A DNA stretch of 64,000 nucleotides from assembly GCA_965279525.1 (NCBI GenBank), contig CBDIIB010000004.1:1280001-1344000 (forward strand). The letters are read 5' to 3'. The DNA comes from Tagaea sp. (lineage in GTDB: Bacteria > Pseudomonadota > Alphaproteobacteria > CACIAM-22H2). Each line of letters begins with the position of its first letter. The stretch's first letter is position 1. The position numbers were made by a program, and so were the translations under genes. The notes beneath the pieces were generated by a model that made no database searches, was not told where the DNA came from, and saw only the letters and a list, made by a program, of their open reading frames with translations. This document shows, one piece after another, positions 21,061 through 56,150 of the stretch.

Positions 21061-21081
21061 TGAGATATGACTGATATCTCA
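21061..21081. promoter_or_regulatory. Inverted repeat TGAGATAT-N5-ATATCTCA (candidate GntR operator)
   Basis: Perfect 8-bp arms between the divergent mutarotase and GntR genes. Confidence 0.7.
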
Positions 21082-21096
21082 GTTATAGATCAAGCC

Positions 21097-23219: not shown

Positions 23220-23269
23220 AACTGAAACAACGGCCGACAGAGCCGAACGACGCAAGGAGGAAAACGAAT

Positions 23270-28743: not shown

Positions 28744-28746
28744 CCA

Positions 28747-31558: not shown

Positions 31559-31571
31559 TCCGGTATTCGGC

Positions 31572-32462: not shown

Positions 32463-32463
32463 C

Positions 32464-40256: not shown

Positions 40257-41078
40257 CTATTGCTTGACCGACCCGGCCGCTAGGCCGGCTACCATATATT
40301 TCTGAAGCGGAAGAAACAGGAGCAGCGTCGGCAAGGTCGTGAGTGCCGACCCCGCCATGACGTTCCCCCAATCCGTGACGTTCTCGCCGAAATAGATGTA
40401 AAGGGCGAGCGGCACAGTCTTCATGTCCTCTTGTGTCAAGATCGCGACGGAGAAGAGATACTCCGACCAGCAGAGCAGGAAGGCATAGGTCGCGGTCGCG
40501 ACGATGCCGGGAAACATGATCGGGAAGATTATTCGCCAGACGACTTGGAAATAGCTCGCACCATCCATGATCGCGGCTTCATCGAGGCTGCGCGGCACCG
40601 AGCGTAGGTAGCCAACCAGTAGATAGACCGAGAATGGCACCGACACCGCGACGTAGACGAAAATCATGCTGATCCAGTTGTTCAGCATGCCTGTACGCGC
40701 GAACAGGATGAAAACGGGTGTCACGAGGATGATCCACGGGAAGGTCTGCCCGAGCAGGATGCCGCCGAACAGGACATCGCGCCCGCGGAAGCGCAACCGC
40801 GAGAACACGTAAGCCGCGTTGACCGACACGATCGTAGACAGCAGAACCGCCGAGACGCACAGGGTGACGCTGTTTGCAATGTTGCGCCCGAACCCGGCGC
40901 CGAAAAGCCGGATGTAATTTTGTAGCGTCCAATCCCAGCGGGCGGCCGAGAACATCGTCTCCGGCGTCTTCAGCGACGCGACAAACACCCAGAGCGTGGG
41001 ATAGACAAGAAACGAAAGCGCGGCGACCGTCAGCCCGACGATCCCGATCTCAGCGAGGATCCGGCGCCGCTGGATCAT
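40257..41078 (-). CDS. Carbohydrate ABC permease (MalG-like)
   Basis: LDEAAIMDGA, WSEY motifs. Confidence 0.92.
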   Translation of the reverse strand: MIQRRRILAEIGIVGLTVAALSFLVYPTLWVFVASLKTPETMFSAARWDWTLQNYIRLFGAGFGRNIANSVTLCVSAVLLSTIVSVNAAYVFSRLRFRGRDVLFGGILLGQTFPWIILVTPVFILFARTGMLNNWISMIFVYVAVSVPFSVYLLVGYLRSVPRSLDEAAIMDGASYFQVVWRIIFPIMFPGIVATATYAFLLCWSEYLFSVAILTQEDMKTVPLALYIYFGENVTDWGNVMAGSALTTLPTLLLFLPLQKYMVAGLAAGSVKQ

Positions 41079-41986
41079 CGGTTTGCGTCCTCGACGAGTT
41101 CGCGCGACGCGATTACGCGCAGGTAGATGAGCCCGAAGATCGTCATGATGGTTGCCATCACGACGCCGGCAGCAGCGCTGTAGCCCAATCGCCCGTCAAT
41201 GAACCCCTTGATATAGACCTCCGTCGCCATGACGTTGGTGTAGAGACCTGGCCCCGCGCCGGTGGTCAGCCAGACATAGATGAAATTATTGAATGTCCAG
41301 AAAGTCGACATCAGCACCATCACGATGATCGCCGGCTTGAGGTGCGGCAGGTAGATGTAGCGGAGGACCTGGATGCGGCTCGCGCCATCGATCTCGGCCG
41401 CTTCGATCAGCTCACTCGACAGCGACTGCAGGCTGGCGAGGAAGGTCAGCGTGACGAGTGGGAGCGTATTCCACGTGATGATCGTGATGATCGCCGGCCA
41501 GACCCAATGCGCATCGGACAGGAACGGAATCGGTTGGTCGACGACGCCAAGCCACATCAGCGCGTGGTTGATCGAGCCGACGCGCGGATCGAGCATCCAG
41601 CGCCAGACGATGATCGCCACGACCGGCGGCGTGGCCCACGGCACGATCAGCAGCAGGCGTGCGGGCGTCGTAAGGCGCAGGCGCTGAAGTGTCCGGCTAT
41701 TGAGCAGGAATGCGAGCGCGAGGCCCAGCAGGATACGCACGGTCACGCCAGTAAGGGTCAGCCATACGACAGTGTTGAACAGCACCCGCCGGAAGTCGGG
41801 GCTGGTCAGCAACTCGACATAATTCTCCGTCCCGATCCAGCTGCCGCCGCGGCGCAGCGTGAAGATGCCGAGATCAGTAAAGCTAGTCTCGAGATTGAAG
41901 ACCGTCGGATAGACGTAGAATGCCGCCAGGAAGAAGAACGCCGGGACGAGCGCAAAAGCGATGAACGCCCGTGGAACAGTAATCAT
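41075..41986 (-). CDS. Carbohydrate ABC permease (MalF-like)
   Basis: IVPWATP, EAAEIDGA, TGAGP motifs. Confidence 0.92.
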   Translation of the reverse strand: MITVPRAFIAFALVPAFFFLAAFYVYPTVFNLETSFTDLGIFTLRRGGSWIGTENYVELLTSPDFRRVLFNTVVWLTLTGVTVRILLGLALAFLLNSRTLQRLRLTTPARLLLIVPWATPPVVAIIVWRWMLDPRVGSINHALMWLGVVDQPIPFLSDAHWVWPAIITIITWNTLPLVTLTFLASLQSLSSELIEAAEIDGASRIQVLRYIYLPHLKPAIIVMVLMSTFWTFNNFIYVWLTTGAGPGLYTNVMATEVYIKGFIDGRLGYSAAAGVVMATIMTIFGLIYLRVIASRELVEDANR

Positions 41987-42016
41987 CGTTGATCGTCCTT
42001 CCGCCTCCGCGCCGCG

Positions 42017-43333
42017 TCAGCGCTGGTTCTTCGCCAGCTCGCGCGAAATCAGCTCGTGCAGCTCGCGCGCCGCGACCGCGCTCGACTTTTCGCCGATGAA
42101 AACCGAGCCGGCGGCCCGGCCAACCGCATTCCACATGAACGGGATCGGTACCGGGCCCGTCGCGTAAGCTCCCCAGCTCCGCGCGGTCGCGAGCTGCTTG
42201 GGATAGCCCAGAAGTTCTGGCCGCCAGTTGCGCTGCGATACGGCCGACCGCTGCGACGGCGTATAGTTCGAGATATGCTTGGTGAATGTCGGATCTGGCG
42301 TCACAAGGAAGCGGACCAACTTCCACGCCTGCTCGATGTTCTTGCAGTTCGGGTTGATGCCGAGCATCCGGCCACCGGCATGTGTGACCGACCCGTTCCG
42401 GCCACCGGGATGCGGAGCGGTCGCAAAGGGTGACTTCTTGCCTGGATTGCGCTGGTCCCACGTCGCAAGAATCTCGGATGAAACGGCATCCGGAGCGCTT
42501 GAGATCGCAATGTTGCCGTTGATTAACCCCTCCGCAATTTCGGGGGCACCCCACAGGCAGATCGACAGGTTGCTGCGTGGGTTGTGGCCTTCGTCGAGGT
42601 AGCTTTTGAAATAGTCGAGGGCTTCCTGCGCCTTCTCAGGCGTGACCCCCATGACGTACCGGCCATCGGCAGCCCTGTCGATCCAACCGGGACCATCCGA
42701 CCACAGATAGAAATTCGTGAAGAACCAGATCGACGGCGTAGCGCAACTGCCCGCAGGGAATCCCCAGCCCGCCTTGCCGGTCTTCTGGAAAATCGTCCGG
42801 CTCGCGTCGCGCAAGCCCGCCCATGTCGTCGGAAACTCGGCGATGCCAGCCTGCGCGAACAGTTCGGTGTTGTACATCATCGAGAACGTATCGGATGTGA
42901 ACGGCACGCCGTAAATCTTCCCGTCGGCGCCTTCGGCGAGATCGCGTGCGAAGAAATCGTCCCAGCCCTTTGCGCCGAGCGTGGCACCATCGCGCTTGAT
43001 CAGATCGTTGAGCGGGTAAAGCGCGCCGCCCGCACCGAACGGCCGGGGTTGAACGAGCGCGATCTGGAGGACGTCGGGGCCGCCGCCGGTCGCGGCTTCG
43101 CGCAGATACTGCGCCTGCATGTCTGCCCAACTGATGCGCTGCAGCGTCACCTTGATTGCGGGATTCTGCCGTTCGAACTCGTCAAGCGCCGCGCGCATCT
43201 GCGGCGCTTCAGGGTCATTGAAACGGAAACTGATCGATACCGGCGCTTGCGATCGGACGGCTGGCGCTCCAAGCACGCCTAGCGTCAGTGCGGCACCCGC
43301 TACGAACTTGCGCCTCGCGATCCTGGTTGCCAT
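42017..43333 (-). CDS. Carbohydrate ABC substrate-binding protein, Tat signal (paralog A)
   Basis: ARRKFV leader; YGVPFTSD, YNTELF..FPTTW. Confidence 0.92.
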   Translation of the reverse strand: MATRIARRKFVAGAALTLGVLGAPAVRSQAPVSISFRFNDPEAPQMRAALDEFERQNPAIKVTLQRISWADMQAQYLREAATGGGPDVLQIALVQPRPFGAGGALYPLNDLIKRDGATLGAKGWDDFFARDLAEGADGKIYGVPFTSDTFSMMYNTELFAQAGIAEFPTTWAGLRDASRTIFQKTGKAGWGFPAGSCATPSIWFFTNFYLWSDGPGWIDRAADGRYVMGVTPEKAQEALDYFKSYLDEGHNPRSNLSICLWGAPEIAEGLINGNIAISSAPDAVSSEILATWDQRNPGKKSPFATAPHPGGRNGSVTHAGGRMLGINPNCKNIEQAWKLVRFLVTPDPTFTKHISNYTPSQRSAVSQRNWRPELLGYPKQLATARSWGAYATGPVPIPFMWNAVGRAAGSVFIGEKSSAVAARELHELISRELAKNQR

Positions 43334-43390: not shown

Positions 43391-43451
43391 TTTCATACAC
43401 AAGAATTATGACCGTCCCCGCACGAAATCCGGGGATGTGGGGAATTTGCCG

Positions 43452-44843
43452 ATGAAACGCCGTCCGAACATCCTGTTGCTGATGCCTGACCAGCACCGGG
43501 GCGACTGGCTAGGCCTGTACGGCAAGCTGCCGGTCCGCACGCCGAACATTGACGCGCTCGCCCGGCGCGGCGTCTTGTTCGCGCAGGCGGTCTGCCCCTC
43601 GCCGCTGTGCGCGCCTTCGCGCGCGGCATTTGCGACCGGGCTCTCCTTCGATCGCTGCCCGGTGAAGCACAACAGCGAAGATCTCCCGGACGGTACTCGG
43701 ACGTTCTACGCAGACATCCTCCAAGCGGGCTATCACGTGACAACCTGCGGGAAACTGGATCTGCTCAAGATGTCAGGCAGCTGGGGGCCAGACGGGCGGC
43801 ACGGTAGCGGAGCGCACTCCAAGTTGGCGGCAATGGGCTTTTCGGCCGGCTGCGATAACGGCGGCAAGCACGACGCGGTCGTCGCCTTCCGGGACGGGCG
43901 CGCCGAGCCCTATACACACTACCTCTCAGGCAGGGGGCTCGCCGAGGTCCATGCCGACGACTACGCGCGCCGAGGGAAGGCCACGGGCGGAACCATCTCA
44001 GGTCATTCGGTGCACTATCTGGATACGGACCCGACCGCACTTCCCGACGACGCCTACTGCGACAACTGGATCGGACGGAACGGCATCGAGCTCATCCGGC
44101 AGGCGCCGTCCGACCGGCCGTGGTTCCTGCAAGTCAATTTCTGCGGCCCACACGAGCCGATGGATGTGACGGCGGAGATGAAGGAGCGTTGGCGCAGTGT
44201 CGAATTCCCTGTTCCCGAACAGAGCAGCGGCCTCGCCCCGTCGCATCATCAAGAGATACGACGGAACTACGCGGCAATGATCGAGAACATCGACCGGTGG
44301 GTCGGGACCTACGTCGAGTTCCTCGAGTCTCGCGGCCTGCTCGACGACACCATCATAATTTACACGAGCGATCACGGCGAGATGCTGGGCGAGCACGGGC
44401 TCTGGGAAAAGCATGTCCCATGGCAACCATCAGTGAATGTACCACTCGTCGTGGCTGGGCCCGGCTATTCTGGCGGCACCTGGGATGATCGAGGCGTTTC
44501 GCTGATTGACCTGACGGCGTCGATCCGGGCGTTTGCAGGCGTCCCCCCCTCAACCGGCGCCGACGGAACGCCGCTCGATCCTGGCAATCCGACGCCTCGG
44601 ATCGCACTTTCGGGCCTAGGTGGCTGGCGCATGGCGAGCGACGGGCGTTTCAAGCTCGTCGTCGGCTACGACAGCCACCATTCGCGCAAGCAAATGATGC
44701 AGACCCGGTTCGATCCGGGATCGACATTGGTGCAACTCTACGATCTTGCCGGAGACCCGGGCGAGACGAACGACATCGCTGCCGCCGAGCCGGCGCATGT
44801 TGCGCGTCTGATGTCGTGCATCGACGGCGCAACACGCCCCTAG
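43452..44843 (+). CDS. Sulfatase-family hydrolase
   Basis: PNILLLMPDQH, LCAPSRAA motif, GPHEP, TSDHGEMLG, DPGE; no signal peptide. Confidence 0.9.
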   Translation: MKRRPNILLLMPDQHRGDWLGLYGKLPVRTPNIDALARRGVLFAQAVCPSPLCAPSRAAFATGLSFDRCPVKHNSEDLPDGTRTFYADILQAGYHVTTCGKLDLLKMSGSWGPDGRHGSGAHSKLAAMGFSAGCDNGGKHDAVVAFRDGRAEPYTHYLSGRGLAEVHADDYARRGKATGGTISGHSVHYLDTDPTALPDDAYCDNWIGRNGIELIRQAPSDRPWFLQVNFCGPHEPMDVTAEMKERWRSVEFPVPEQSSGLAPSHHQEIRRNYAAMIENIDRWVGTYVEFLESRGLLDDTIIIYTSDHGEMLGEHGLWEKHVPWQPSVNVPLVVAGPGYSGGTWDDRGVSLIDLTASIRAFAGVPPSTGADGTPLDPGNPTPRIALSGLGGWRMASDGRFKLVVGYDSHHSRKQMMQTRFDPGSTLVQLYDLAGDPGETNDIAAAEPAHVARLMSCIDGATRP

Positions 44844-44855
44844 CCTCCCGAAGTC

Positions 44856-46172
44856 TCAGCGCTGGAGTCGAGCCAGCTCGCGCGCGATCGTGTCATGGAG
44901 TTCGCGGCCGGCCACTGCGCTCGTCTTCTCGCCGATGAAAACGGATCCGGCCGCGCGGCCCACCGCGTTCCACATGAACGGGATCGGCACGGGACCTGTC
45001 GCATACGGTCCCCAGCTACGGGAGTTCGCAAGCTGCTTGGGGTATCCGGCGAGCTCCGGCGCCCAGCTGCGGCTGTTGAGTGCGGCCCGCTGCGCCGGCG
45101 TGTAGTTCGTATAGTGGCGCGTGAAGGTCGGCTCGGGCGTCACAAGGAACTTGATCAGGCTCCATGCCTGCTCGACATTCTTGCAATTCGGGCTGATACC
45201 GAGCATGCGCCCGCCGAAATTGGTGACCGACCCGTTGCGTCCGCCTGGGAACGGCGCGGTCGCGAAGGGCGCCTTCTTGCCCGGGTTGCGCTGCTCCCAT
45301 TTCGACAAGATCTCCATCGCGACCGTATCGGGAATGCCGCAGATCGCGATGTTGCCGCCGAGCATGCCCTCGACAAGCTCGGGTGCGCCCCACAGGCAGA
45401 CCGACATGCTGCTGCGTGGATTGTGGCCCTCGACGAGGAAGGAATTGTAGTAGTCGAGAGCATCCTGCGCCTGCTGCGGCGAAACGCCGACGACGTACTT
45501 GCCGTCCGCGCCCTTGTCCATCCAGCCCGGGCCATTGGACCAGAAGAAGTAGTTCATGAAAAACCAGATCGTCGGGGTGGCACAGCTGCCCGCCGGGAAG
45601 CCCCAGCCGGCCTTGCCGGTCGTCCGGTGAACTGCACGGCTCGCGTCGCGCAGCCCCTCCCACGTCGTGGGGAACTCACGCACGCCCGACTGCGCGAGCA
45701 TCTCGGTGTTGTACATCATCGTGAACGTGTCAGTCGTCCACGGGATCGCGTAGGTCTTGCCGTCCGGGCCTTCGGCGAGATCGCGTGCGAAGAAGTCGTT
45801 CCATCCCTTGAGGCCAAGAGAGGCACCGTCGCGCCCGATCAGGTCGTCCAGCGGCCGCAACGCGCCACCGCCGCCGAACGAGCGGGGCTGGACGAAGGAG
45901 ATATGGGCGACGTCGGGCGCGGTGCCTGTCGCCGCCTCGCGCAGATACTGCTGCTGCATGTCGGCCCAGCTGATGCGCTGCATGTTCACTTTGATTGCCG
46001 GATTCGAACGCTCGAATACGTCAAGGGCAGCACGCATCTGTGGCGCTTCGGGATCGTTGAAGCGGAAGCTTATCGTGACCTGCGATTGCGACCGGACCGC
46101 CGGCGCGGCGAGCAGTCCGGCGGCAAGGACGCTGCCACCAACGAACTCTCTACGTGCGATTTTCCTAGTCAT
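44856..46172 (-). CDS. Carbohydrate ABC substrate-binding protein, Tat signal (paralog B)
   Basis: Re-started at MTRKIARREF after a GGGGAG RBS; 438 aa, collinear with 42017..43333. Confidence 0.92.
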   Translation of the reverse strand: MTRKIARREFVGGSVLAAGLLAAPAVRSQSQVTISFRFNDPEAPQMRAALDVFERSNPAIKVNMQRISWADMQQQYLREAATGTAPDVAHISFVQPRSFGGGGALRPLDDLIGRDGASLGLKGWNDFFARDLAEGPDGKTYAIPWTTDTFTMMYNTEMLAQSGVREFPTTWEGLRDASRAVHRTTGKAGWGFPAGSCATPTIWFFMNYFFWSNGPGWMDKGADGKYVVGVSPQQAQDALDYYNSFLVEGHNPRSSMSVCLWGAPELVEGMLGGNIAICGIPDTVAMEILSKWEQRNPGKKAPFATAPFPGGRNGSVTNFGGRMLGISPNCKNVEQAWSLIKFLVTPEPTFTRHYTNYTPAQRAALNSRSWAPELAGYPKQLANSRSWGPYATGPVPIPFMWNAVGRAAGSVFIGEKTSAVAGRELHDTIARELARLQR

Positions 46173-46212: not shown

Positions 46213-47238
46213 TTATGTACTTGACGGCAATGGTGCCAGAGGATCGACGAGACCGTCTGCCGACAGATCTTGCCAGAACGCAGGCGGAATCCGTGCCGAA
46301 CATGCGGCCAAGGCAATTCCGACTTCTTCCGGTGACCGGTAGCCGGCAGCGACGCTCGCGACCGCCGGGTGGGCAAGCGGGAACTGCGTCGCGGCCGCCT
46401 GAAGCGAGATGCCGTGCCGGGCGCAGTGCACTTCGATCCGGCGGACCCGATCGAGAATTTCGGGAGGTGCATCCGCATACCAGTATTTGGCGCCTGGAAC
46501 CGCGCCGGTCGCGAGAATTCCAGAATTATACGGAGCAGCCAGAAGGATCGATATCTGCTTCGACGTGCAGATCGGCAAAAGCTTTGGCAATGCCGTGGTA
46601 TCCAGCAGCGTGTAGCGGCCGGCAAGCATGAAACAGTCGAAGTCTCCGTCGTTCGCGTACCGGATGAGCGTGTCGACATCGTTGATGCCCACGCCGATCG
46701 CGCCGATCGTACCGGCCGCGCGCAAATCGGACAGGGCGCGAAATGCGCCATCGATCGACTGGCGATAGGATTCTTCGAACCGGTCGCCGCGCCATTTGGC
46801 AGTAACGTCATGGATCAGCACGATATCGATGCGCGCCATGCCGAGCCGCTGGTAACTGTCCTCGATCGAACGCATCGCGCCGTCGTACGAGTAGTCGTAC
46901 TCGATATCGAAGGGCAGCGTCTTCGTGAATGGCCCGGGCGAGCGCCCGAGATCCGTCCGCGGCCTCAGGCGTCGCCCCACTTTCGTCGACAGGACGAAGC
47001 CATCGCGTGGATGGCTCCGCAGCGCTTCACCAAGGCGATGTTCCGACAGGCCATGTCCGTAGAACGGTGCCGTATCGAAATACGTGATCCCGGCGGCACG
47101 TGCCGCATCCACGGCCGCGCGCGTCGCCGAGTCCGGAACATCGGCAAGCAGGTTGCCGAATGGTGCGGCCCCGAACCCGAGTTGTGAAACCTCGATCGCG
47201 GTTCGACCGATCCGGCGACGGCCGGCGGGACTGGTCAT
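46213..47238 (-). CDS. Aldo/keto reductase (D-threo-aldose 1-dehydrogenase-like)
   Basis: FDTAPFYGHGLSEHRLG, LSTKVGR, LIHD, LAGRYTLLD. Confidence 0.88.
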   Translation of the reverse strand: MTSPAGRRRIGRTAIEVSQLGFGAAPFGNLLADVPDSATRAAVDAARAAGITYFDTAPFYGHGLSEHRLGEALRSHPRDGFVLSTKVGRRLRPRTDLGRSPGPFTKTLPFDIEYDYSYDGAMRSIEDSYQRLGMARIDIVLIHDVTAKWRGDRFEESYRQSIDGAFRALSDLRAAGTIGAIGVGINDVDTLIRYANDGDFDCFMLAGRYTLLDTTALPKLLPICTSKQISILLAAPYNSGILATGAVPGAKYWYADAPPEILDRVRRIEVHCARHGISLQAAATQFPLAHPAVASVAAGYRSPEEVGIALAACSARIPPAFWQDLSADGLVDPLAPLPSST

Positions 47239-47543
47239 CGTGCGCTTCCCTCTCGCTTGCGGGCGCGATTGCTCGCGATGTTGTGAACATGGACGTGCTG
47301 GCCCGCAGCGATATCGACCGAAGCCGATGCGATCGACTCGCCATACTTGTGGACATGCGCGCCCGCCGAAATGGGACGGCGTGCGATCTTGTGGCCAAGG
47401 GCGACCATGTCCGTCGCCATAACGGTTTCAAGAATACCGTCGACACGGATACGTACTGAGGTACCTGCAACGACATCACGTAACAGCACGGCCACGTCGT
47501 CGCGCGGGTCGATCACGATCGCATCCCAGCCCGAAACCGTCAT
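47235..47543 (-). CDS. SAF-domain small subunit of a UxaA/SuyA-type dehydratase or lyase
   Basis: Re-started at MTVSGW; DDVAVLLRD, GHKIA, KYGESIA, GQHVHVHN. Confidence 0.85.
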   Translation of the reverse strand: MTVSGWDAIVIDPRDDVAVLLRDVVAGTSVRIRVDGILETVMATDMVALGHKIARRPISAGAHVHKYGESIASASVDIAAGQHVHVHNIASNRARKREGSAR

Positions 47544-48436
47544 TTTGCCGTCCGGACCTGGATGCCTGCCTTGTCCTCGCGCATCTTCAGCAGGACACCG
47601 ACATCGTTCGCGCCCATGCCCCGGTCGATGCCGTCCTGGCAGGCCGCGAGCGTCGCCTTGCCGATGGGCGCATCGAGCCCCATCGCATCGATCATCTGGA
47701 GCGCGATCCGGCAATCCTTGTGGGCAAGGCGCAGCATGAAGCCCGGTGCAAAATCGCCTTTCAGTGGCCGGATGGGGAAGGCAACCGCAAGCTGGCTGTT
47801 CCAGGCCATCGTCTTCTGCATCACGGCGGTCATCGTCTCGAGCGTGAGGCCCGCCTTGATACCGGCAGCAAGGACCTCGGCATTGGCCGCGACGAGGGTC
47901 GTCGCGAGAAGGTTGTTTGTCGCCTTCATCGCATGGCCATTTCCAAGGCCGCCACACGTGAAGAAATCGGTTCCCATGCAGTCGAGGATCGGGCGAACCC
48001 GCGCCACAGCCGCAGGATCGCCGCCGACCATCAGCGTCAATGTTCCGGAAACGGCGTGCTCCGCCGTCTTTCCGACAGGACTGTCGACCATGTGGCAGCC
48101 CTTCGCGGCAAGTGCGGCTCCGATCTTGCGCGTCGTGCCGGGGGCGCTGGTGCTCATGTCGATCATCGTGCTGCCGGCTCTCAGGCCTTCGATCACGCCG
48201 CCGGGGCCAAGCGCGACACGCTCGACGTCCGGGGCATCTGGCAGCATCGTGATGACGACGTCGCTCGCTGCGGCGACGGCTGCGGGCGAAGATGCCGCCT
48301 TTGCACCCTGGGCCACCAATCGAGCAACAGCGCCGGCATCGACGTCGAAGACTGTCAGCGTGTTGCCCTTTTTGAGAACGTTCGCAGCCATCGGGCCGCC
48401 CATTATCCCCAATCCGATGAATCCCACTGCCGCCAT
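47540..48436 (-). CDS. NAD(P)-dependent beta-hydroxyacid dehydrogenase, YihU (sulfolactaldehyde reductase)-like
   Basis: Re-started at MAAVGFIGLG; DSPVGKTAEHAVSGTL parallels YihU DVPVGRTSANAITGTL (recalled); LAHKD. Confidence 0.85.
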   Translation of the reverse strand: MAAVGFIGLGIMGGPMAANVLKKGNTLTVFDVDAGAVARLVAQGAKAASSPAAVAAASDVVITMLPDAPDVERVALGPGGVIEGLRAGSTMIDMSTSAPGTTRKIGAALAAKGCHMVDSPVGKTAEHAVSGTLTLMVGGDPAAVARVRPILDCMGTDFFTCGGLGNGHAMKATNNLLATTLVAANAEVLAAGIKAGLTLETMTAVMQKTMAWNSQLAVAFPIRPLKGDFAPGFMLRLAHKDCRIALQMIDAMGLDAPIGKATLAACQDGIDRGMGANDVGVLLKMREDKAGIQVRTAK

Positions 48437-48446
48437 TTTTCCCTCC

Positions 48447-49619
48447 CTACATCGATCCGCCAGCGCGATAGAACGCCTCAGCGCCTTCACCGTGAACTTC
48501 GCCCCATGTCGAGGCGCCCGACGCGATTGCAAGTACGAGGTCGAACAGGCGCGCACCTGCCGAAGCGATATCTTCACGCCCTTCGAATACCGGGCTGGCG
48601 TCAAAATCGATCTGGTCGACCAAGCGCCCGGCCGTATCGGGCCGTCCGGTGATCTTGATCGTCGGCGCGATCGAGTTGCAGAAGCTGTTGCCGGCACCAG
48701 TCGTGAAAAGCATCAAGTTGGCACCGGAAGCCGCGAAGCCGGTCAGCGATTCAGGCGAGAAGCTGGGTCCGTCCATCAGATAAAGCCCCGACTCGGATGG
48801 CTCCTCGGCAACGGCGAGGACACCGCGTATCGGCCGGGTGCCGGTCTTGGCGATGGCGCCAAGCGACTTTTCCTCGATCGACGACAGACCACCGCGAATG
48901 TTCTCGGCACCGGGATTGTTCCCGGTCAGATCATGTCCGCCCGCCGCCACTTCAGCTTCGCGCCGCAGGACGACGGCAACGATGGCCGCCGCTGTCGTCG
49001 CGTCGACCGCGCGGCGCGACACGATATGCTCGGCGCCGAGCCATTCGACCGTCTCGCCCACGACCGCCGTTCCGCCCGCATCCACGACCCGATCGACACA
49101 GTTTCCCGCCACGGGATTGGCGACCAGGCCCGATGTAGCGTCGGAATGACCGCATTCCACGCCGAGGAAGAGTGACGAAGCAGCCTGTGGTGTCCGGACA
49201 AGGCGGGAGGCCGCGTGGACAAGTTCGGCAGCAATCCGGATGCCCTGCGCACTTGCTTCGACAGCATCCTCATGCGTGTCGTCGAGTGCCACGAAACGCA
49301 CCGGCTTGCCGGTTGACGCGACGGCGGCCACGACCTGATCGACCGATATCCGGTCCGCTCCGACCACCAGCACGGCAGCGATGTTCGGATTGCGACACAA
49401 TCCGACAAGTTGAGCGCGATGGAGTGTCCTGTCGGCGCCATAGTGGCCGCGACCATAAGGGGTCGCGACGAGTAGCGTGCCTGGAACGGCGCTGGCAATC
49501 CGCTCGGCCACGCGGGTCACGAGGCCGAGGATGGAAACGACAAGAACGCGATTGCGAGTTCCCGCACGACCATCGGAACGCAGATATCCCATGAATGTCG
49601 GTCGACCGCCGGCTGGCAA
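48447..49619 (-). CDS. UxaA/SuyB-family dehydratase or lyase, large subunit
   Basis: GYLRSDGRAGTRN, ECGHSDATSG..ANP, GN..GGLSSIEEKSLG, FTTG. Confidence 0.88.
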   Translation of the reverse strand: MPAGGRPTFMGYLRSDGRAGTRNRVLVVSILGLVTRVAERIASAVPGTLLVATPYGRGHYGADRTLHRAQLVGLCRNPNIAAVLVVGADRISVDQVVAAVASTGKPVRFVALDDTHEDAVEASAQGIRIAAELVHAASRLVRTPQAASSLFLGVECGHSDATSGLVANPVAGNCVDRVVDAGGTAVVGETVEWLGAEHIVSRRAVDATTAAAIVAVVLRREAEVAAGGHDLTGNNPGAENIRGGLSSIEEKSLGAIAKTGTRPIRGVLAVAEEPSESGLYLMDGPSFSPESLTGFAASGANLMLFTTGAGNSFCNSIAPTIKITGRPDTAGRLVDQIDFDASPVFEGREDIASAGARLFDLVLAIASGASTWGEVHGEGAEAFYRAGGSM

Positions 49620-49679: not shown

Positions 49680-49695
49680 ATGTTAACGCATACAT
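49680..49695. promoter_or_regulatory. LacI-type operator ATGTTAACGCATACAT
   Basis: Imperfect palindrome between the divergent UxaA-like gene and the LacI gene. Confidence 0.7.
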
Positions 49696-49715: not shown

Positions 49716-50762
49716 TTGGGGGAAGCTGTCCTGCGATCCAAGAACATCCGTCGCTCGCGCCAGCAGGCACGATCGCGCCTGGAAGACGTCGCGCGGCATG
49801 CCGGTGTCTCGAAGATGACGGTCGTGCGCGTCCTGCGCGAGGCGCACAAGGTTGCCCCCGCGACACAGGCGCGTGTCACCGCCGCTCTGGACGCGACAAA
49901 ATATTCGCCTGACCTCGTCGCGCGCGCCCTGGTCTCGCGCCGCTCAGGTGTCGTTGGTGCGATCGTGCCGACCCTGTCGAACTCGTTGATAGCCGATGTG
50001 ATCCAAGGCATGTCCGAGGAACTGGAACGCGATGGCCGTCAGTTGATGGTCGGTGCGTCAGGTTTTTCGGCAACCGCCGAAGAAGCGCTGGTCCGGAGCT
50101 TCCTGTCTCGGCGAGTCGATGCGCTCTATCTGACAGGCACCAGTCACACATCCGCGACGTTGCGATTGCTCGCCGCGGCGGGAGTTCCCGTTGTCGAAGG
50201 CGGGAACATCCCGTCAAATCCCATCGACCTTGTCGTCGGCGTCTCCAACATCGATGCGGCTGCTTCGGTCGTGGCGCATCTGATCGGACGCTATGGACGG
50301 AGTGTCGGATTCGCGGGTGGCTCCCCGATCGACAACGACCGGATGCGCGACAGGCGCGCCGGGTACGAGCTTGCGCTGCGAAGGGCCGGCATGCGTGCAC
50401 CACCGGCTTTCAAGGTCGAGGTGCCGATCTCCATGGGCGGCGGGCGGGAAGCACTCGGGCGACTGCTTGCGTTGCCGGACCGTCCGCGAGCGATGTTCTG
50501 TGCGACGGACGTCATCGCCGCTGGCGCCATCCAGGAATGCCTGCGACGCGGATTGCGCTTGCCGGACGACATTGCGATCGCGGGGTACGACGATCTGGAC
50601 ATCGCGAGGGAGCTTGTCCCTGCCCTCACGACCGTACGCGTGCCCCGCTACGAGATCGGCCGCCAAGCCGCGCGCCTGTTCCAGCTCAGCCTGACAGGTC
50701 GCAGGCCACGCCAAGCGGTTCTCGACATCGGTTATGAACTTGTCGTGCGCGAAAGCGCCTGA
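49716..50762 (+). CDS. LacI-family regulator (GntR/IdnR-like branch)
   Basis: LEDVARHAGVSKMTVVRVLR HTH; IAGYDD, PALTTV; start uncertain. Confidence 0.92.
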   Translation: MGEAVLRSKNIRRSRQQARSRLEDVARHAGVSKMTVVRVLREAHKVAPATQARVTAALDATKYSPDLVARALVSRRSGVVGAIVPTLSNSLIADVIQGMSEELERDGRQLMVGASGFSATAEEALVRSFLSRRVDALYLTGTSHTSATLRLLAAAGVPVVEGGNIPSNPIDLVVGVSNIDAAASVVAHLIGRYGRSVGFAGGSPIDNDRMRDRRAGYELALRRAGMRAPPAFKVEVPISMGGGREALGRLLALPDRPRAMFCATDVIAAGAIQECLRRGLRLPDDIAIAGYDDLDIARELVPALTTVRVPRYEIGRQAARLFQLSLTGRRPRQAVLDIGYELVVRESA

Positions 50763-50779: not shown

Positions 50780-51529
50780 ATGCAGAGATCCGTGATCGTT
50801 ACCGGCGCCAGCCGCGGCATCGGCGCCGCCACAGCAATCCTCGCCGCCCGCGACGGCTGGCAAGTCTGCGTGAATTATCGCAGCCACGCAGACGAAGCCG
50901 AAGCAACGCTTCGGGCGGTACGTGCATATGGCGTCGAAGCGATTTCGGTGAAGGCGGACGTCGCCGACGAAAGTCAGCTCGTTGCAATGTTCGAGCGCTG
51001 CGACCGGGAGCTGGCCCCGCTCGGCGGACTGGTCAACAACGCGGGCTACCTTGGCGGCGAAAGCGACATCGAAGACTTCGATCCGGTCGCCATGCGGCAG
51101 CTGTGGGATGTGAACGTCGTCGCCTACTTCATCTGCGCGCGCGAGGCCGTCAAGCGGATGTCGACCAAGCGTGGCGGCAAGGGTGGCTCGATCGTAAATG
51201 TCTCGTCGATGTCGGCCGACAGCGGCGGCATCGGGCCGCGCATCCACTATGCGACGACGAACGGCGCTCGGCGCACCTTCACATTCGGCCTTGCAAAGCA
51301 GTCCGGGCCGAAGGGCATCCGGGTCAACGGCGTCATGCCGGGCGTGATCGACACGCATTTCAACGATGACTTCGACAACGAGGGACGAAATGCCCGGCTG
51401 GGGCCGAGCATCCCGGTTGGCCGGGTCGGCGTGGGCACAGATGTCGCGGAAATGATCGTGTGGCTGCTATCGGAGAATGCTGCGTTCGTCAGTGGCGCGG
51501 TCATTCCCGTCAATGGCGCTCACTTCTGA
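50780..51529 (+). CDS. Short-chain dehydrogenase/reductase with atypical YxxxN motif
   Basis: TGASRGIG, VNNAG, NVSS; HYATTNG where YxxxK is expected. Confidence 0.85.
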   Translation: MQRSVIVTGASRGIGAATAILAARDGWQVCVNYRSHADEAEATLRAVRAYGVEAISVKADVADESQLVAMFERCDRELAPLGGLVNNAGYLGGESDIEDFDPVAMRQLWDVNVVAYFICAREAVKRMSTKRGGKGGSIVNVSSMSADSGGIGPRIHYATTNGARRTFTFGLAKQSGPKGIRVNGVMPGVIDTHFNDDFDNEGRNARLGPSIPVGRVGVGTDVAEMIVWLLSENAAFVSGAVIPVNGAHF

Positions 51530-52481
51530 CACCGGTAAGTCGGTAGACACGCGCCGCCGTCCCGCCGAAGACGGCGGCGCGCCCGCCCGGCGGGATGTCA
51601 GCGAGGATTCGGGATAGGATGTCGATCTGCCGCATCGCGGTGCACATCAGACCCTCGATCGGAAGATTGCTGCCCCACATGCAACGCTCCGGGCCAAACG
51701 CCTCGACTGCGAAGCGGACCGGATCGCGCAGCCGTTCGAAGTTCCAGTCTCGGGCGATCGTCCATAGACCCGATATTTTCACGAAGACATTCTGAAAGCC
51801 GGCATTCAGCCTTATTCCGCTGCGCCAAACGTCCATCACACCGGGTATCTCCGGCTGGAGCGTGGCAAGATGATTTATGATGATCGTCAGCTGCGGAAAC
51901 TTCGCGGCGAGTTCGGCCATTTCCGGAAGCTGTTCGGGCAGAAGGATCACCTCCAGGATGCAGCCGCGGCGCGCGATTTCGGCGATGCCTTCGCGAAAGC
52001 CGGATGCCTTGGATATCTCCGGGCCCCGTGCGAATTTCCACGGCGAATCCGCTCTCCAGGCGATGCCCGTGCGCACGCCCCTGGCGCCGGGGTAGGCAAG
52101 AATCGCGCCTAGGTCGCGCGTGATCGACGATGATGCTGGATCGATATGGGCGATGCTCGCGTTCGGAACGCCATGCGAGACGCGTAAGTCCTCGAGCCAA
52201 GCCGTTTCGGCTGCAGGGTCGATCGCCCCGGGTGCGGCCTCCACATGCACGCTCGCCGCTATGCCGATACCGAGCGTGTCACGGCGGTAGTCGTCCGGCA
52301 GATAGTCGCGCTTGATCGGCGCATGGTCCCCGAACGGTCGCGGTGGCGCTTCCGGTCGCAGCCACGGATAGGGGAGTTTGGCCAGATCCCACAAATGATG
52401 GTGCGCGTCGACGATCCCGACGACAGGCCGGGTCTCGGTCGTGGCGGAAGAATTCGTGACCAGATCAACTTCGACCGGCAT
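51510..52481 (-). CDS. Amidohydrolase-2 family lactonase-like protein
   Basis: DAHHHLWD, SVHVEA, IINH, KISGL, FGPERCMWGSNLP; start inferred. Confidence 0.82.
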   Translation of the reverse strand: MPVEVDLVTNSSATTETRPVVGIVDAHHHLWDLAKLPYPWLRPEAPPRPFGDHAPIKRDYLPDDYRRDTLGIGIAASVHVEAAPGAIDPAAETAWLEDLRVSHGVPNASIAHIDPASSSITRDLGAILAYPGARGVRTGIAWRADSPWKFARGPEISKASGFREGIAEIARRGCILEVILLPEQLPEMAELAAKFPQLTIIINHLATLQPEIPGVMDVWRSGIRLNAGFQNVFVKISGLWTIARDWNFERLRDPVRFAVEAFGPERCMWGSNLPIEGLMCTAMRQIDILSRILADIPPGGRAAVFGGTAARVYRLTGVRSERH

Positions 52482-52500
52482 AGAATCTCTCGCGACCTGC

Positions 52501-53442
52501 TTAGCTGCAGGCCGCGCCTCCAAGCACGCAGAACTTCGCACAATGGCGGTGGTTGAGTGGCACCGGGCCTGCAGCGCCCGCGAGGGTCGGGCCGAGATCA
52601 AACGCCGCCTCATACGGCAACAGCGTGCAGGCGATCACGCTCGCGTGCTCCGCCCCCTTGCGATGCACGACCATGCGCGAGGACGCGCACATCACATCGT
52701 TCGGCGATTTGTCGAGAATTCCCCAGCAAGCCTCGCTGATCTCGGGAACGTCGGCGGTCGCGTCCATCTCCGGGAAGATAACCAAAGCATGTGGGTCGGA
52801 TGCGTCGACGGGGATGCCATCGTCCGCAAAAAGTGCCGCAAACCCGCGACGCAGCGCAGCCTCGTTGTCCGGCCCGACGAGACGCGCGGCGACGGCGATG
52901 CTTGCGCCGGTACCGGCGAGCCACTTCAGGCCTTCGACCGCCGGAGCCCACGTATCGGCGCCCCGGACCGCCTCGTGCGGTCCGCGTGAAAAATGGTCGA
53001 GCGAGACCCGCAGTGTGAGCCGGTCCGGATAGGCGGCGATCAAAGCCGCGATGTCGGCGCGCCGGTTCAGCATCGGCTTCATCGCGTTGGTGAGGACCAG
53101 CACGCGCATCCCCGTGGCCAGCGCATCCGCTAGCATGCCGACGATATCAGGGTTCATGAACGGCTCGCCGCCCGTGAAGCCGATCTCAACCAGGGCCGGC
53201 GACAGCGCCTGCGCTTCGGCGACGAATCGCGCGGCTTCGTCCCGACCCAGATAGGCAAGCCGGTCGTTGCGCGGCGAGGATTCGATATAGCAGTTCGTGC
53301 AGGCGATATTGCACAGCGTGCCGGTATTGAGCCAGAGCGTGCGCAGCGCCAAGAGCCGGACCGCCGCCCGCTTCTGGCCCGTCAGAGTGACCTGCGGGTC
53401 GATGAACTTCCCGGTCTGCTGCAAAATGGCCTCGGCTTCCAT
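52501..53442 (-). CDS. Radical SAM protein with Cys-rich C-terminus (ArsS-related neighbourhood)
   Basis: CNIACTNC (CxxxCxxC), FTGGEPF, VLTN, VSLD; tail HCAKFCVLGGAACS. Confidence 0.88.
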   Translation of the reverse strand: MEAEAILQQTGKFIDPQVTLTGQKRAAVRLLALRTLWLNTGTLCNIACTNCYIESSPRNDRLAYLGRDEAARFVAEAQALSPALVEIGFTGGEPFMNPDIVGMLADALATGMRVLVLTNAMKPMLNRRADIAALIAAYPDRLTLRVSLDHFSRGPHEAVRGADTWAPAVEGLKWLAGTGASIAVAARLVGPDNEAALRRGFAALFADDGIPVDASDPHALVIFPEMDATADVPEISEACWGILDKSPNDVMCASSRMVVHRKGAEHASVIACTLLPYEAAFDLGPTLAGAAGPVPLNHRHCAKFCVLGGAACS

Positions 53443-53452
53443 GGTCCTGCCC

Positions 53453-54082
53453 TTACGCTCCTGGTTCGGGCCGTCGGGCACATTGGTTTCGGCCGGCACG
53501 TCGCTGCCATGAAATATAGTCCGCCCGGTCGTCGATGTCGTTCAGAACCGGTCCCAGTGCGACGGTCCGGAAACGGAGATTTGCTAGACAGTCGCCGAGC
53601 GCATGCGGGCCCGACCATCTGACGCCGGCGAACGCACGACCGACAAGGCGGCCGCTGCGGAAGCCGACCGCCCAGAAGCCGCCATCGGTTGCCGGGCCGA
53701 AAACCGCGGCATGCGTACCAAGCAGGGCAAATGCCGCATGCAGCTGAAACTGCATCATTTCCGGGATGTCGCATCCGACGAGAAGCACTGGCCCTCGATG
53801 GCGGCCAAGTGCCCTGCCCATCCGCATGCCGAGATCGCCACGCCCCTGCGGTACGAGACCGGCGCCGGCGGGCAGCATCCATATCCGCCGATTGCGTGCC
53901 GCTCGGTCTGGCGTCACGCAGATTTCAATGCGCCAGGGTCCGTGCGCGACGATCCGGCAAGTCCGAGCCAGGGTGGCCCGGTGGAAAGCGAGCGCTGCCG
54001 CATCGCCGATGCCGGAAGCCAGACGCGTTTTGACCCGGCCGAGGACAGGCAGGCGCGCGAACACAACGACTGTCGGTCTCAT
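53453..54082 (-). CDS. DUF2064/TIGR04282-like nucleotidyl- or glycosyltransferase (CofC-like)
   Basis: VFARLPVLGRVKTRLA, QGRGDLGMRM, VGCDIP, FGPATDGGFW, DIDDRAD. Confidence 0.85.
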   Translation of the reverse strand: MRPTVVVFARLPVLGRVKTRLASGIGDAAALAFHRATLARTCRIVAHGPWRIEICVTPDRAARNRRIWMLPAGAGLVPQGRGDLGMRMGRALGRHRGPVLLVGCDIPEMMQFQLHAAFALLGTHAAVFGPATDGGFWAVGFRSGRLVGRAFAGVRWSGPHALGDCLANLRFRTVALGPVLNDIDDRADYISWQRRAGRNQCARRPEPGA

Positions 54083-54792
54083 CGGCGTCCCCGATAGAGG
54101 CCGGCAAGCCTGTCGGGCGACATGCCCGCGAACCAGAGGGCCAGGCACGCGAGGTTTCGTGCCGGTCGAAGCCACCAGCCATCACGACGGTATCGGTCGG
54201 CGGATGTCGTCGCGACGGCGTCCAATCCGACCAGACGCGCACGCCCGATCCGCCGGACGAGATCGACATCCTCCATCAGCAGAACAGGCCGGAAGCCGCC
54301 CGTCGAGCGATAGAGCGCCGCCGGAACGAGTAGACCCTGGTCGCCATAGGGAAGCCCGAAATGCCGCGCACGCCAGTTCGCGAGCCGCGCCACGCGCGCG
54401 GCCCGCCTGTCGGGATCGTCGAAGGCAAGCCTGAAATATGCGGCGTGGCCGTGCGCGGGCGTCCCTTCGACGAACGCGCGTGCGGCGCACATCCAACCTG
54501 CTTCAAGCCGCGTGTCGGAATGAACGAAAAGCAGCCATGCAGCACCCTGGGCGAGCGCTTCCTCGGCACCGGCGACGAGTTGCGCCCCCCGTCCGCGGGG
54601 TGACATCACCACGACCGCACCGGCGTCCCGGGCGATCGCGACAGACGCGTCCGATGATCCGCCATCAGCGACGATCATTCGTCCGGCGGGCATTTTCAAC
54701 GCTGCGAGGGAAGCACCAAGACCTGCCGCCGCGTCGAATGTCGGAAGGATCGCCCACAGGCCGTGACGCAGGAGTGCCGACATATCGTCCAT
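54079..54792 (-). CDS. GT2 glycosyltransferase, TIGR04283-like
   Basis: VADGGSSD, RGRGAQL, LFVHSD, LPYGDQGL, LMEDV, TSADRY. Confidence 0.85.
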   Translation of the reverse strand: MDDMSALLRHGLWAILPTFDAAAGLGASLAALKMPAGRMIVADGGSSDASVAIARDAGAVVVMSPRGRGAQLVAGAEEALAQGAAWLLFVHSDTRLEAGWMCAARAFVEGTPAHGHAAYFRLAFDDPDRRAARVARLANWRARHFGLPYGDQGLLVPAALYRSTGGFRPVLLMEDVDLVRRIGRARLVGLDAVATTSADRYRRDGWWLRPARNLACLALWFAGMSPDRLAGLYRGRR

Positions 54793-54848
54793 GACGGAGC
54801 GTCACCCGACCCGGCCACCAACCGCAAGGAGAAGGAATGTTCGGATCA

Positions 54849-54876
54849 GTAGGGCTCGATCCTGCGACCCGCCGAT
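54849..54876 (-). repeat. Degenerate direct repeat of the tRNA-Lys 3' half (att-site relic)
   Basis: gtagggctcgatcctgcgacccgccgat vs 62187-62214 gtagggctcgaacctacgacccgctgat: 25/28 identical, same orientation, intergenic. Confidence 0.75.
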
Positions 54877-54896
54877 GGGCGGCATCCGGATGTGCG

Positions 54897-56137: not shown

Positions 56138-56150
56138 GCTACTCCTCCCG

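Follow-up and report, generated by a model that had tools for sequence, protein, structure and literature searches.

The operon and its four genes

Organic sulfur is stored in large amounts as sugar sulfate esters and sulfosugars, and the known bacterial routes into them use sulfatases, or sulfoglycolytic pathways that end in SuyAB-type lyases. Here we describe a four-gene operon in a 64,000-nucleotide stretch of Tagaea sp. DNA (contig CBDIIB010000004.1, positions 1,280,001 to 1,344,000; the whole stretch is called the window below, and its positions are counted from its first letter). The operon encodes the large and small subunits of a split UxaA/GarD-family enzyme, a YihU-like dehydrogenase/reductase of the HIBADH family whose gene lies between those of the two subunits, and an aldo-keto reductase (AKR) (Table 1). 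The protein family, the split architecture and each of the accessory families are already known. What is new is a large, coherent and uncharacterised subfamily which, judged from its sequences, has an active-site signature of its own, the separation of the subunit genes by a dehydrogenase gene and in most relatives also by a whole transporter, and a constant association with a YihU-like enzyme in loci rich in sulfatases. The operon is probably part of an undescribed route for the breakdown of sulfur-bearing sugars.

An earlier note on this DNA had given the gene order as large subunit, reductase with a YihU-like motif, SAF-domain small subunit and AKR, and this order is borne out by the open reading frame (ORF) listing, the translations and the Pfam and NCBIfam models. 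The translated HIBADH gene holds DSPVGKTAEHAVSG, which includes the motif PVGKT, as well as MVDSPVGKTAEHAVSGTL. The large subunit may start at the TTG at 49619 or at an ATG near 49592 (residue 10); the latter is more likely to be the true start, since it gives a 381-aa form and a database homologue (P0001) that is 100% identical also has 381 aa. The HIBADH stop and the small-subunit start share an ATGA overlap, as do the small-subunit stop and the AKR start, and the large-subunit stop is followed by a ribosome-binding site (GGGAGGG) and the ATG of the HIBADH gene; the four genes therefore form one translationally coupled operon. An imperfect palindrome, TGTATGCGTTAACA (49681-49694), lies between the large-subunit gene and a divergent LacI-family gene and is a candidate operator.

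The SAF, second and C-terminal domains of the UxaA/GarD superfamily are all present, divided across the two subunits, which are paired here on the basis of fused homologues. The large subunit matches the GarD structure 6u7l (E 2.2e-36). The small subunit could be aligned with SuyA-type and fucose-type small subunits and with the N-termini of fused enzymes; the window and the related loci together give 42 rows with a homologue.

The AKR resembles aldose 1-dehydrogenases, its nearest solved structures being plant L-galactose dehydrogenases (1.4e-34), and a homologue 41% identical to it adjoins a fused UxaA-type dehydratase gene in Burkholderia cenocepacia. The genes beyond the large subunit encode a regulator, a short-chain dehydrogenase/reductase (SDR) and an Amidohydro_2 protein. 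The best solved relatives of the SDR are uncharacterised SDRs and glucose 1-dehydrogenases; no L-2-keto-3-deoxyfuconate (L-KDF) dehydrogenase is among its listed structural matches. The Amidohydro_2 protein (best solved structure 4dlf/4dnm, E 4.7e-13) is a probable sugar lactonase by homology. Elsewhere in the genome, an AKR paralogue (49% identical) lies directly beside an aldolase-type gene of the dihydrodipicolinate synthase (DHDPS) family (C3:276589-278569), which may be a separate non-phosphorylative sugar cluster.

Table 1. Operon genes and other features of the window. Strand is left blank where none was recorded; ABC, ATP-binding cassette.
Feature	Position	Strand	Remarks
Large subunit, UxaA/GarD family, no SAF domain	48447-49619	-	Pfam GD_AH_second and GD_AH_C (PF04295 6.5e-24, PF20629 9.7e-78)
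HIBADH-family NAD(P) dehydrogenase/reductase, YihU-like	47540-48433	-	NAD_binding_2 and NAD_binding_11; Pfam, NCBIfam
Small subunit, SAF domain, 102 aa	47235-47543	-	SAF E 4e-5; N-terminal part of galactarate dehydratase model TIGR03248 E 7e-6
AKR	46213-47238	-	Aldo_ket_red E 1e-42
LacI-family regulator, divergent	49716-50762	+	closest to GntR and IdnR (gluconate and idonate repressors), both below cut-off
SDR, glucose 1-dehydrogenase-like	50780-51529	+	homologue in 12/43 loci
Amidohydro_2 protein	51510-52613	-	Pfam; sole NCBIfam match L-fucono-1,5-lactonase, 78.7 bits against a cut-off of 400
CUT1-type ABC substrate-binding protein	44856-46124	-	directly downstream of the AKR; Pfam
Cys-type sulfatase, CAPSR motif	43437-44843	+	no signal peptide evident
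CUT1 ABC transporter	40257-43333	-	binding protein 42017-43333, permeases 41075-41986 and 40257-41078; Pfam
Sulfatase, CSPTR motif	37943-40243	-	like P. aeruginosa AtsA (2.6e-72)
Sulfatase, CSAAR motif	35685 to ~37946	-	
Second YihU-like HIBADH protein	28747-29652		47% identical to the operon HIBADH protein
Second Amidohydro_2 protein	27895-28743		
Second AKR	within 26774-27910		45% identical to the operon AKR
NitT/TauT-type permeases	25021-26978		
SsuA-like substrate-binding proteins	18558-19775, 22895-24295		
Choline-sulfatase-like sulfatase	21744-23219		choline sulfatases 1.5e-52
GntR/FCD regulator	21067-21747		
SMP-30 lactonase	19667-20674		

Placement and signature of the large subunit

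A protein search with the large subunit returned close relatives of one form: the 120 best matches considered were all at least 64% identical, all split and 357-427 aa long, with no fused form (~500 aa) among them and a longest member of 427 aa. Among proteins of 684-2000 aa, a search gave two distant matches (31-32% identity). Scanning of species-representative genomes yielded 43 related loci, of which the closest (L001) comes from a metagenome-assembled genome of Tagaea sp. (95% identity).

Reference sets of the UxaA family were taken from annotated plasmid and E. coli records. The SuyB rows were defined by gene context only, and Swiss-Prot SuyB is not among them; a sulfolactate-type context comprised small and large subunit genes, a TauE or PSE-type exporter, SlcC-/ComC-like dehydrogenases, and tripartite tricarboxylate transporter (TTT) or DctA carriers. 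SuyZ is the founding member of the PSE exporter family. Examples are Paracoccus aestuarii, Methylobacterium radiotolerans, Variovorax, Rhodococcus koreensis and Halomicrococcus, and Caballeronia insecticola, whose locus is unannotated, was put in this group by tree position and signature only. An L-fucose context comprised FucU, a fumarylacetoacetate hydrolase (FAH)-type hydrolase, an amidohydrolase, glucose 1-dehydrogenases and, in one locus, a glycoside hydrolase of family 95 (GH95), as in Bacillus sp. F19 and S3. The other split references came from haloarchaeal sugar contexts and from Sporomusa, in a TTT/LarA context, and the fused references were E. coli UxaA and GarD, the Paracoccus denitrificans enzyme encoded beside a 2-keto-3-deoxygalactonate kinase and aldolase, and others. 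Three loci with fragmented large-subunit matches (L040, L041, L043) were excluded from every tree.

In a quick tree of 53 rows, the window clade (41 rows) had an SH-like approximate likelihood ratio (SH-aLRT) support of 100 and stood beside three SuyB-context rows (SH-aLRT 90), both within a clade of split enzymes (96), with fused UxaA, GarD and idonate-type enzymes outside. More careful trees, in which 15 of the 41 clade rows were retained and the long-branch L052 and the second Halostagnicola copy were dropped, gave the window clade support of 100/100 on a stem of 0.76-0.81 changes per site, and all split enzymes again formed one clade (93/97). The grouping of the window clade with the SuyB-context rows received 83/79 in a tree of 32 rows, and 91/85 when the paralogues from the same genome were added (34 rows). 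An approximately unbiased (AU) test did not reject a fucose-type (L-fuconate dehydratase) sister (p=0.073, log-likelihood difference 17.1). From these trees, the SuyB-context clade is favoured, not proven, as the sister of the window clade. The comparison with SuyB, UxaA and GarD that the earlier note had proposed as a check thus places the large subunit outside the UxaA and GarD clades, and an ordinary UxaA or GarD orthologue is ruled out by the trees together with the TIGR03248 score (162.6 bits against a cut-off of 730.85).

The passages of Watanabe et al. (PMC6336799) on this superfamily describe four Cys residues that are conserved throughout it except in sulfolactate sulfo-lyase and are proposed to be iron ligands, in an enzyme which abstracts the alpha-proton and eliminates the 3-OH. 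All four, at positions 33, 57, 88 and 156, are present in the six fused references, the fused paralogue in the same genome, both fucose-context split enzymes and the Sporomusa enzyme. The six SuyB-context rows have I/L/N/Y, R, I/L/G and C at these positions, and the window clade likewise keeps C156 alone. A further six residues (H53, G158, S237, G239, D288 and R309) are conserved in at least nine of the ten dehydratases sampled, a small set made up of six fused, two fucose-type and two haloarchaeal rows, and the window clade has other residues at all six (Table 2). Eight positions are invariant in 41/41 clade rows: L33, R57, D89, C156, H158, G237, E239 and S288. The active-site signature of the window clade is thus shown by these alignments to differ both from that of the dehydratases and from that of core SuyB.

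Table 2. Signature residues of the large subunit, numbered as in the window protein. The dehydratase column covers fused and fucose-type enzymes; the core SuyB-context column includes the C5 paralogue from the same genome.
Position	Dehydratases	Core SuyB-context and C5 paralogue	Window clade
33	C	L (I in one row)	L
53	H	H	T/S/L
57	C	R	R
88	C	I	A/V
89	E	E	D
156	C	C	C
158	G	E	H
237	S	T	G
238	P	K (Q in one row)	A/E
239	G	G	E
288	D	A	S
309	R	Q	A/P
347	G	R	G

The derived characters that SuyB and the window enzyme nevertheless share in the alignment are Arg57 and the absence of the Cys triad, of D288 and of R309. Together with the preference for a SuyB-type sister, these are the parts of the earlier description of the pair as SuyAB-like that stand. 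The split form itself is not exclusive to SuyAB, since Bacillus plasmids bear L-fucose clusters whose split enzymes show the full dehydratase signature, and six core-SuyB residues (E158, T237, K238, A288, Q309 and R347) are all absent from the window enzyme (0/6). SuyAB needs Fe2+. Loss of the Cys residues is no proof of new chemistry, because haloarchaeal split enzymes that lack Cys at positions 33, 57 and 88, and keep all the other dehydratase residues, sit in plain sugar contexts (GH28, GH4, Gfo/Idh/MocA).

The 4.35 Mb genome holds three UxaA-family genes. The fused paralogue has the full dehydratase signature and clusters with an idonate/arabinonate-type enzyme, and the third, C5:404732-405940 (locus L069), has the exact core-SuyB signature and nests inside the SuyB-context clade, to which the window enzyme is sister and outside. 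The C5 gene is flanked by a candidate small-subunit ORF of 94 aa upstream (no Pfam match), an Fe-S protein and a TauE/SafE sulfite exporter, and its locus also holds a NitT-type ABC system with an NMT1-like binding protein. Canonical SuyAB identity of the window pair is ruled out by the signature and by this paralogue, and the window enzyme itself would be a functionally diverged paralogue on the evidence of its sequence. Sulfolactate is an unlikely substrate for it, given the lack of all six core-SuyB residues and the presence of a canonical SuyAB-type pair with TauE elsewhere in the genome.

The same evidence bears on the idea that the window pair is a second sulfolactate sulfo-lyase, a SuyAB isozyme for the degradation of dihydroxypropanesulfonate or sulfolactaldehyde in which the YihU-like enzyme would work oxidatively. 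A Rhodococcus Suy-type cluster does hold a HIBADH-family gene (31% identical) beside an aldehyde dehydrogenase and SlcC-/ComC-like dehydrogenases, and a plasmid homologue of the reductase (42%, best E-value) is encoded beside split genes for a thiamine pyrophosphate (TPP) enzyme and an Ldh-family oxidoreductase, which is a sulfolactate-like setting. In Methylobacterium currus, a HIBADH-family gene lies beside TPP genes like those of sulfopyruvate decarboxylase. However, an isozyme would leave the AKR and the lactonases unexplained, and neither a sulfite/sulfate exporter nor SlcC/ComC dehydrogenases, which are present in the SuyAB reference loci, were seen among the scanned window ORFs or the families shared by the 43 loci, an aldehyde dehydrogenase also being absent from those shared families. 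In a genome that already has the exact core-SuyB pair with TauE, we consider a second one very improbable.

The shared characters can also be read as the mark of a different lyase, one which, in the manner of SuyAB, eliminates a sulfur oxyanion instead of water from some 2-hydroxy acid other than sulfolactate with sulfate (C-O-S) or sulfonate (C-S) on its C3, and releases a 2-keto-3-deoxy acid or pyruvate. Candidate substrates would be a 3-O-sulfo-aldonate made by the AKR and a lactonase, or glycerate 3-sulfate. The favoured sister group, the sharing of L33 and R57 and of the loss of D288 and R309, and the loss of the proposed Cys-ligated iron site of the dehydratases all speak for such an enzyme; set against them are the missing core-SuyB residues, two of them cationic and replaced, and the gain of the acidic D89 and E239.

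Partners of the enzyme in the window and in related loci

The YihU-like character of the HIBADH protein, as claimed in the earlier note, holds in part. The best NCBIfam model is that of YihU (NF012005), at 243.3 bits (GarR 217), and the score lies below the YihU cut-off of 348. Among solved structures YihU (6sm7, 8.7e-57) is tied with 3cky, a 2-hydroxymethylglutarate dehydrogenase. At 39.5% identity, the protein is the best homologue of E. coli YihU that tblastn gave in the genome. All 31 orthologues whose sequence spans the motif have PVGKT, where GarR has PVSGG, and K171 and N174 are kept in 32/32 orthologues. According to the pocket description in PMC8006165, the sulfonate of the YihU substrate is held by Asn174, Ser178 and the backbone NH of residue 123. 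Half of this pocket is thus kept, since Ser178 is replaced by Ala in all 32 orthologues, followed by Thr, Ser or Asn. The weight that the earlier note gave to Lys in place of Arg in the motif is not sustained: this is residue 123, which contributes its backbone alone, so that the change means little. The second HIBADH protein of the window keeps Arg123, Asn174 and Ser178, which puts its pocket nearer to that of YihU than the pocket of the operon enzyme.

Gene calling by ORF length and third-position GC failed in this 63% GC DNA; conservation across loci was used instead, and genes of the 43 loci were counted by tblastn with the window proteins and by clustering of conserved ORFs, whose families may include antisense artefacts (f20, f21). 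The most frequent partner is the HIBADH gene (32/43 loci), followed by a NitT/TauT ATPase (26), an SsuA-like binding protein (25), the AKR (22-23), a LacI gene beside the large subunit (22), an SMP-30 lactonase (21) and TctC (19). A GntR/FCD regulator and each of two kinds of SDR occur in 12 loci, sulfatases in 11 and an enolase-superfamily (MR_MLE) protein in eight. MR_MLE genes recur beside split UxaA-family genes of both the SuyB-context kind and the window clade, in L044, L058 and L061 as well as in these eight loci.

The order large subunit, HIBADH, small subunit, AKR, or the same with an ABC transporter after the large subunit, is found in Rhodospirillales, Hyphomicrobiales and Betaproteobacteria, and this recurrence shows that the arrangement is not due to chance. 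In Casimicrobiaceae, Mesorhizobium, Microvirga, Bosea and others (L013-L021, L027-L041), a whole SsuA/TauA/NitT-type transporter of ~3.7 kb separates the large-subunit gene from those of the HIBADH protein and the small subunit, so that the two subunits are encoded up to ~4.6 kb apart. Examples from Bosea and Mesorhizobium (L028:9152-12840, L033:9152-12773) served to check the type of transporter against Pfam, NCBIfam and solved structures: the permease is like SaoP/TauC, the ATPase like SaoA and nitrate and taurine types, and the binding protein matches SsuA_fam (3.8e-20) and E. coli SsuA 2x26 (3.8e-9). Loci without an AKR (Mesorhizobium, Bosea, Microvirga) have a glucose-1-dehydrogenase-like SDR and an SMP-30 lactonase upstream.

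Four sulfatases are encoded in the window. Each carries a Cys-type C-x-P/A-x-R motif and lacks a visible signal peptide, and they are predicted from this to be cytoplasmic; two matches to the formylglycine-generating-enzyme family are found elsewhere in the genome. There are about eight sulfatase places in the genome. The window contains four of them, and two overlapping ones are located at its left edge or straddle it; a sulfatase-like gene crosses the border there (C4:1278247-1281145). Relatives of the CAPSR sulfatase (45-72% identity) lie beside the operon in another Tagaea locus (L002) and three Bosea-type loci, and relatives of the CSAAR sulfatase do so in L011 (74%) and a Casimicrobiaceae locus (45%). 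No sulfatase is listed in ten annotated reference loci of other UxaA subfamilies.

The operon and the sulfatases belong to an island of ~34 kb (18.5-52.6 kb) with 62.4% GC, compared with 66.4% for the genome, and with a lower third-position GC than a region of C5; the low values in both measures suggest horizontal acquisition. The island contains three CUT1 ABC systems, a NitT/TauT-type ABC system, two LacI regulators, an SDR and a glucose-methanol-choline (GMC) oxidoreductase. The binding protein directly downstream of the AKR gave weak structural matches (SmoF 9e-11) that are uninformative. A second module (26774-29652) carries AKR, Amidohydro_2 and HIBADH genes without a UxaA-family gene, and adjoins a LacI regulator, a CUT1 ABC system (29706-33834) and the GMC oxidoreductase (34052-35677).

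Two further parts of the window are recorded for completeness. A minus-strand cluster at 52501-56401 is unrelated and encodes a radical SAM protein (52501-53499), a DUF2064 protein (53453-54175), a family 2 glycosyltransferase (54079-54792), a DUF6385-like ORF and a DUF6772 protein (55232-56401). The first 16,941 positions are rich in transporters, with TTT systems at 5523-8614 and 11227-14241 and a CUT1 binding protein and permease at 3159-5486, and also hold a LysR regulator (8655-9632) and a DUF4432 protein (1139-2629).

A possible pathway and the systems it resembles

Tentatively, and short of an even chance, we favour an oxidative, non-phosphorylative pathway resembling the Entner-Doudoroff (ED) route for a sulfated or sulfonated sugar. 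The sugar that the operon serves would be anionic, a sulfate ester being the most likely kind and a sulfonate the alternative; the substrate class, like the chemistry of every step, is inferred. Uptake would be by an ABC system, CUT1-type here and SsuA/TauA/NitT-type in most relatives. The AKR, or in some lineages the glucose-1-dehydrogenase-like SDR, would oxidise C1 to give a lactone, which an Amidohydro_2 or SMP-30 lactonase would open to the aldonate. The two-subunit enzyme would then take the proton next to the carboxylate and eliminate the C3 substituent, leaving a 2-keto-3-deoxy acid that retains its distal sulfate or sulfonate. An aldolase encoded elsewhere could split this into pyruvate and an anionic C3 aldehyde, which the YihU-like dehydrogenase would reduce as YihU reduces sulfolactaldehyde, and the neighbouring cytoplasmic sulfatases might free sulfate before or after the other steps.

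This route assigns a role to every gene of the operon. A sulfur-bearing substrate is suggested by the affinity to SuyB, the remodelled active site, the YihU-like partner, the importers of the sulfonate/sulfate-ester type inside the operon and the recurrent sulfatases; oxidation of a sugar at C1 is suggested by the AKR or SDR with a lactonase, and by a regulator like the gluconate repressor.

Several observations weigh against the ED-like route. The HIBADH protein scores below the YihU cut-off and has lost Ser178, the fucose-type sister survives the AU test, and the haloarchaeal enzymes show that a Cys-less site can belong to a plain sugar context. Sulfatases flank just 11/43 loci, which is a partial linkage. 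Carboxylate sugar acids would be just as plausible a cargo for the SsuA-like and TTT transporters, hydrolytic desulfation could come first and leave an ordinary sugar, and the association of AKR, Amidohydro_2 and UxaA-family enzyme is also found around the fused dehydratase of Burkholderia and in L-fucose clusters. An aldolase is the main missing piece: of 21 aldolase matches in the genome (two of the 2-keto-3-deoxy-6-phosphogluconate (KDPG) type, 12 DHDPS-type and seven HpcH-type) none is in the window, and no aldolase family is among those shared by the 43 loci. The route consequently needs an aldolase acting in trans. A FAH hydrolase was sought as well, and neither this nor a linked aldolase turned up in the scans of the window and of the shared families.

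There is also no link to sulfoquinovose, as no sulfoquinovosidase was found in the genome. The earlier note had remarked on the lack of the sulfoglycolysis genes YihQ, YihS, YihT and YihV, and a tblastn search of the full 4.35 Mb genome with the E. coli proteins confirms it: YihS and YihT were not found, YihV gave only a generic PfkB kinase, beside a KDPG aldolase, and YihQ gave only GH31 proteins at 25-28% identity, the better of which (C2) has A/A/F at the sulfoquinovosidase positions R301/W304/Y508. A sulfoquinovosidase route was rejected on these grounds. Similarly, no IlvD/Edd-type dehydratase, 2-keto-3,6-dideoxy-6-sulfogluconate (KDSG) aldolase or sulfoquinovosidase was seen among the window ORFs that were scanned, which are not all of them.

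The strongest competitor, which we rate as somewhat unlikely and behind the ED-like route, is an ordinary non-phosphorylative pathway for a sugar or sugar acid, in which the sulfatases act first or are uninvolved and the split enzyme dehydrates a plain aldonate such as L-fuconate, L-galactonate or gluconate. The 2-keto-3-deoxy acid would be consumed by housekeeping KdgK/Eda or other enzymes, and the HIBADH protein would take a neutral or carboxylate aldehyde. Much of the gene content is compatible with this. Both Pfam domains of the large subunit are altronate/galactarate dehydratase domains, the AKR is like L-galactose dehydrogenase, the sole named relative of the lactonase is L-fucono-1,5-lactonase, and the regulator is like gluconate and idonate repressors. 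A KdgK-like kinase and Eda are encoded together at C5:264566-266066, and the split enzymes of the Bacillus L-fucose clusters (FucU, FAH hydrolase, GH95 fucosidases) are 41% identical to the large subunit; the AU test, the Cys-less haloarchaeal enzymes and the gene set recurring around the fused dehydratase count on this side too. What such a pathway does not account for is the YihU-like enzyme, the SsuA-type importers in the operon and the recurring sulfatases, nor does it fit the replacement of six positions conserved in the ten sampled dehydratases, with H158, G237, E239 and S288 fixed in 41/41 rows. FAH hydrolase and FucU mutarotase were not seen among the families shared by the 43 loci.

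No aldolase or kinase is linked downstream, which would suit the lyase introduced above just as well if its product were already a common metabolite, whether 2-keto-3-deoxygluconate (KDG) for KdgK-Eda or pyruvate, and the setting, rich in sulfate esters and sulfonate-type importers, agrees with it. Such a lyase would however give the YihU-like enzyme no clear role, the four nearby sulfatases already provide hydrolytic desulfation, and no sulfite exporter or sulfite dehydrogenase family was seen in the 43 loci, whereas the canonical SuyAB pair has TauE. We know of no sugar with a sulfonate at C3, which also counts against it. We regard the lyase as unlikely, and give a similarly low rating to the more specific proposal that the split enzyme is a new functional class, one that splits off sulfate (or sulfite) without hydrolysis, by alpha,beta-elimination from a sulfated or sulfonated aldonate which the neighbouring AKR and lactonase would form out of a sugar sulfate.

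Under any of these readings, characterisation of the enzyme would give a function to an entire subfamily whose members currently bear the labels 'altronate dehydratase large subunit' or 'UxaA family hydrolase'. It would also reveal the residues on which the choice between dehydration and sulfo-lyase chemistry depends, and might extend the organosulfur cycle by a further pathway. If the lyase class were true, it would mean a sulfatase-independent desulfation that feeds a 2-keto-3-deoxy acid or pyruvate into central metabolism and, with the YihU-like enzyme and the SsuA-type importers, a widespread new pathway of sugar-sulfate mineralisation in soil and freshwater Proteobacteria. Cultured carriers of the clade exist (Bosea sp. 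Root483D1, Mesorhizobium spp., Microvirga zambiensis and Falsiroseomonas sp.), so the question is directly testable. We found no paper linking UxaA-family enzymes with sulfatases in the literature searched, which did not cover supplements, so that a published hint could be missed.

Among known systems, SuyAB is like the window enzyme in having a SAF-domain small subunit and a large subunit, in being its favoured sister, in the replacement of three of the four Cys residues, the second by Arg, and in the loss of D288 and R309. It differs in that the window clade is separate, on a long stem, and in gene order, which is small-large in SuyAB and large-small with genes between in the window type. 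The small subunits end in S-x-R-A-R in the window type and in K-T-K-R-W in the SuyA type, and no TauE/PSE exporter or SlcC/ComC dehydrogenase lies near the window operon, unlike in the SuyAB reference loci.

A heteromeric L-fuconate dehydratase has been proposed from gene contexts in a passage of Watanabe et al. that cites unpublished data (PMC6336799). The corresponding enzymes of the Bacillus plasmid loci (L055, L060) are split like the window enzyme, share ~41% identity with it and are accompanied by an Amidohydro_2 lactonase and sugar 1-dehydrogenases. Unlike it, they keep the four Cys and the invariant H, G, S, G and D (one of the two has Leu at R309), and their clusters carry FucU, FAH hydrolase and, in one, GH95, without a HIBADH gene, an SsuA-type transporter or a sulfatase.

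E. coli GarD and GarR offer another parallel, a UxaA/GarD-superfamily eliminating enzyme encoded near a HIBADH-family reductase. GarD, however, is fused, keeps its Cys residues and lies outside the split clade, GarR has PVSGG where the window protein has PVGKT, and E. coli has the GarL aldolase and GarK kinase that are absent at the window operon. YihU shares with the operon dehydrogenase a PVG-basic-T motif, the catalytic Lys171 and Asn174, and is set apart from it by the modest identity, the sub-cut-off score, Ser178 in place of Ala and the sulfoglycolysis genes, which are lacking near the operon.

The sulfo-ED pathway for sulfoquinovose uses a sulfoquinovosidase, a sugar 1-dehydrogenase, an SMP-30-type lactonase, an IlvD/Edd-type dehydratase, a KDSG aldolase and an oxidoreductase for the C3 sulfo-aldehyde. 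The ED-like route proposed here would follow the same logic of steps with ABC uptake, but its dehydratase belongs to the UxaA family rather than to IlvD/Edd, it has neither a linked aldolase nor a sulfoquinovosidase, and the sulfatases of the window point to sulfate esters rather than sulfonates.

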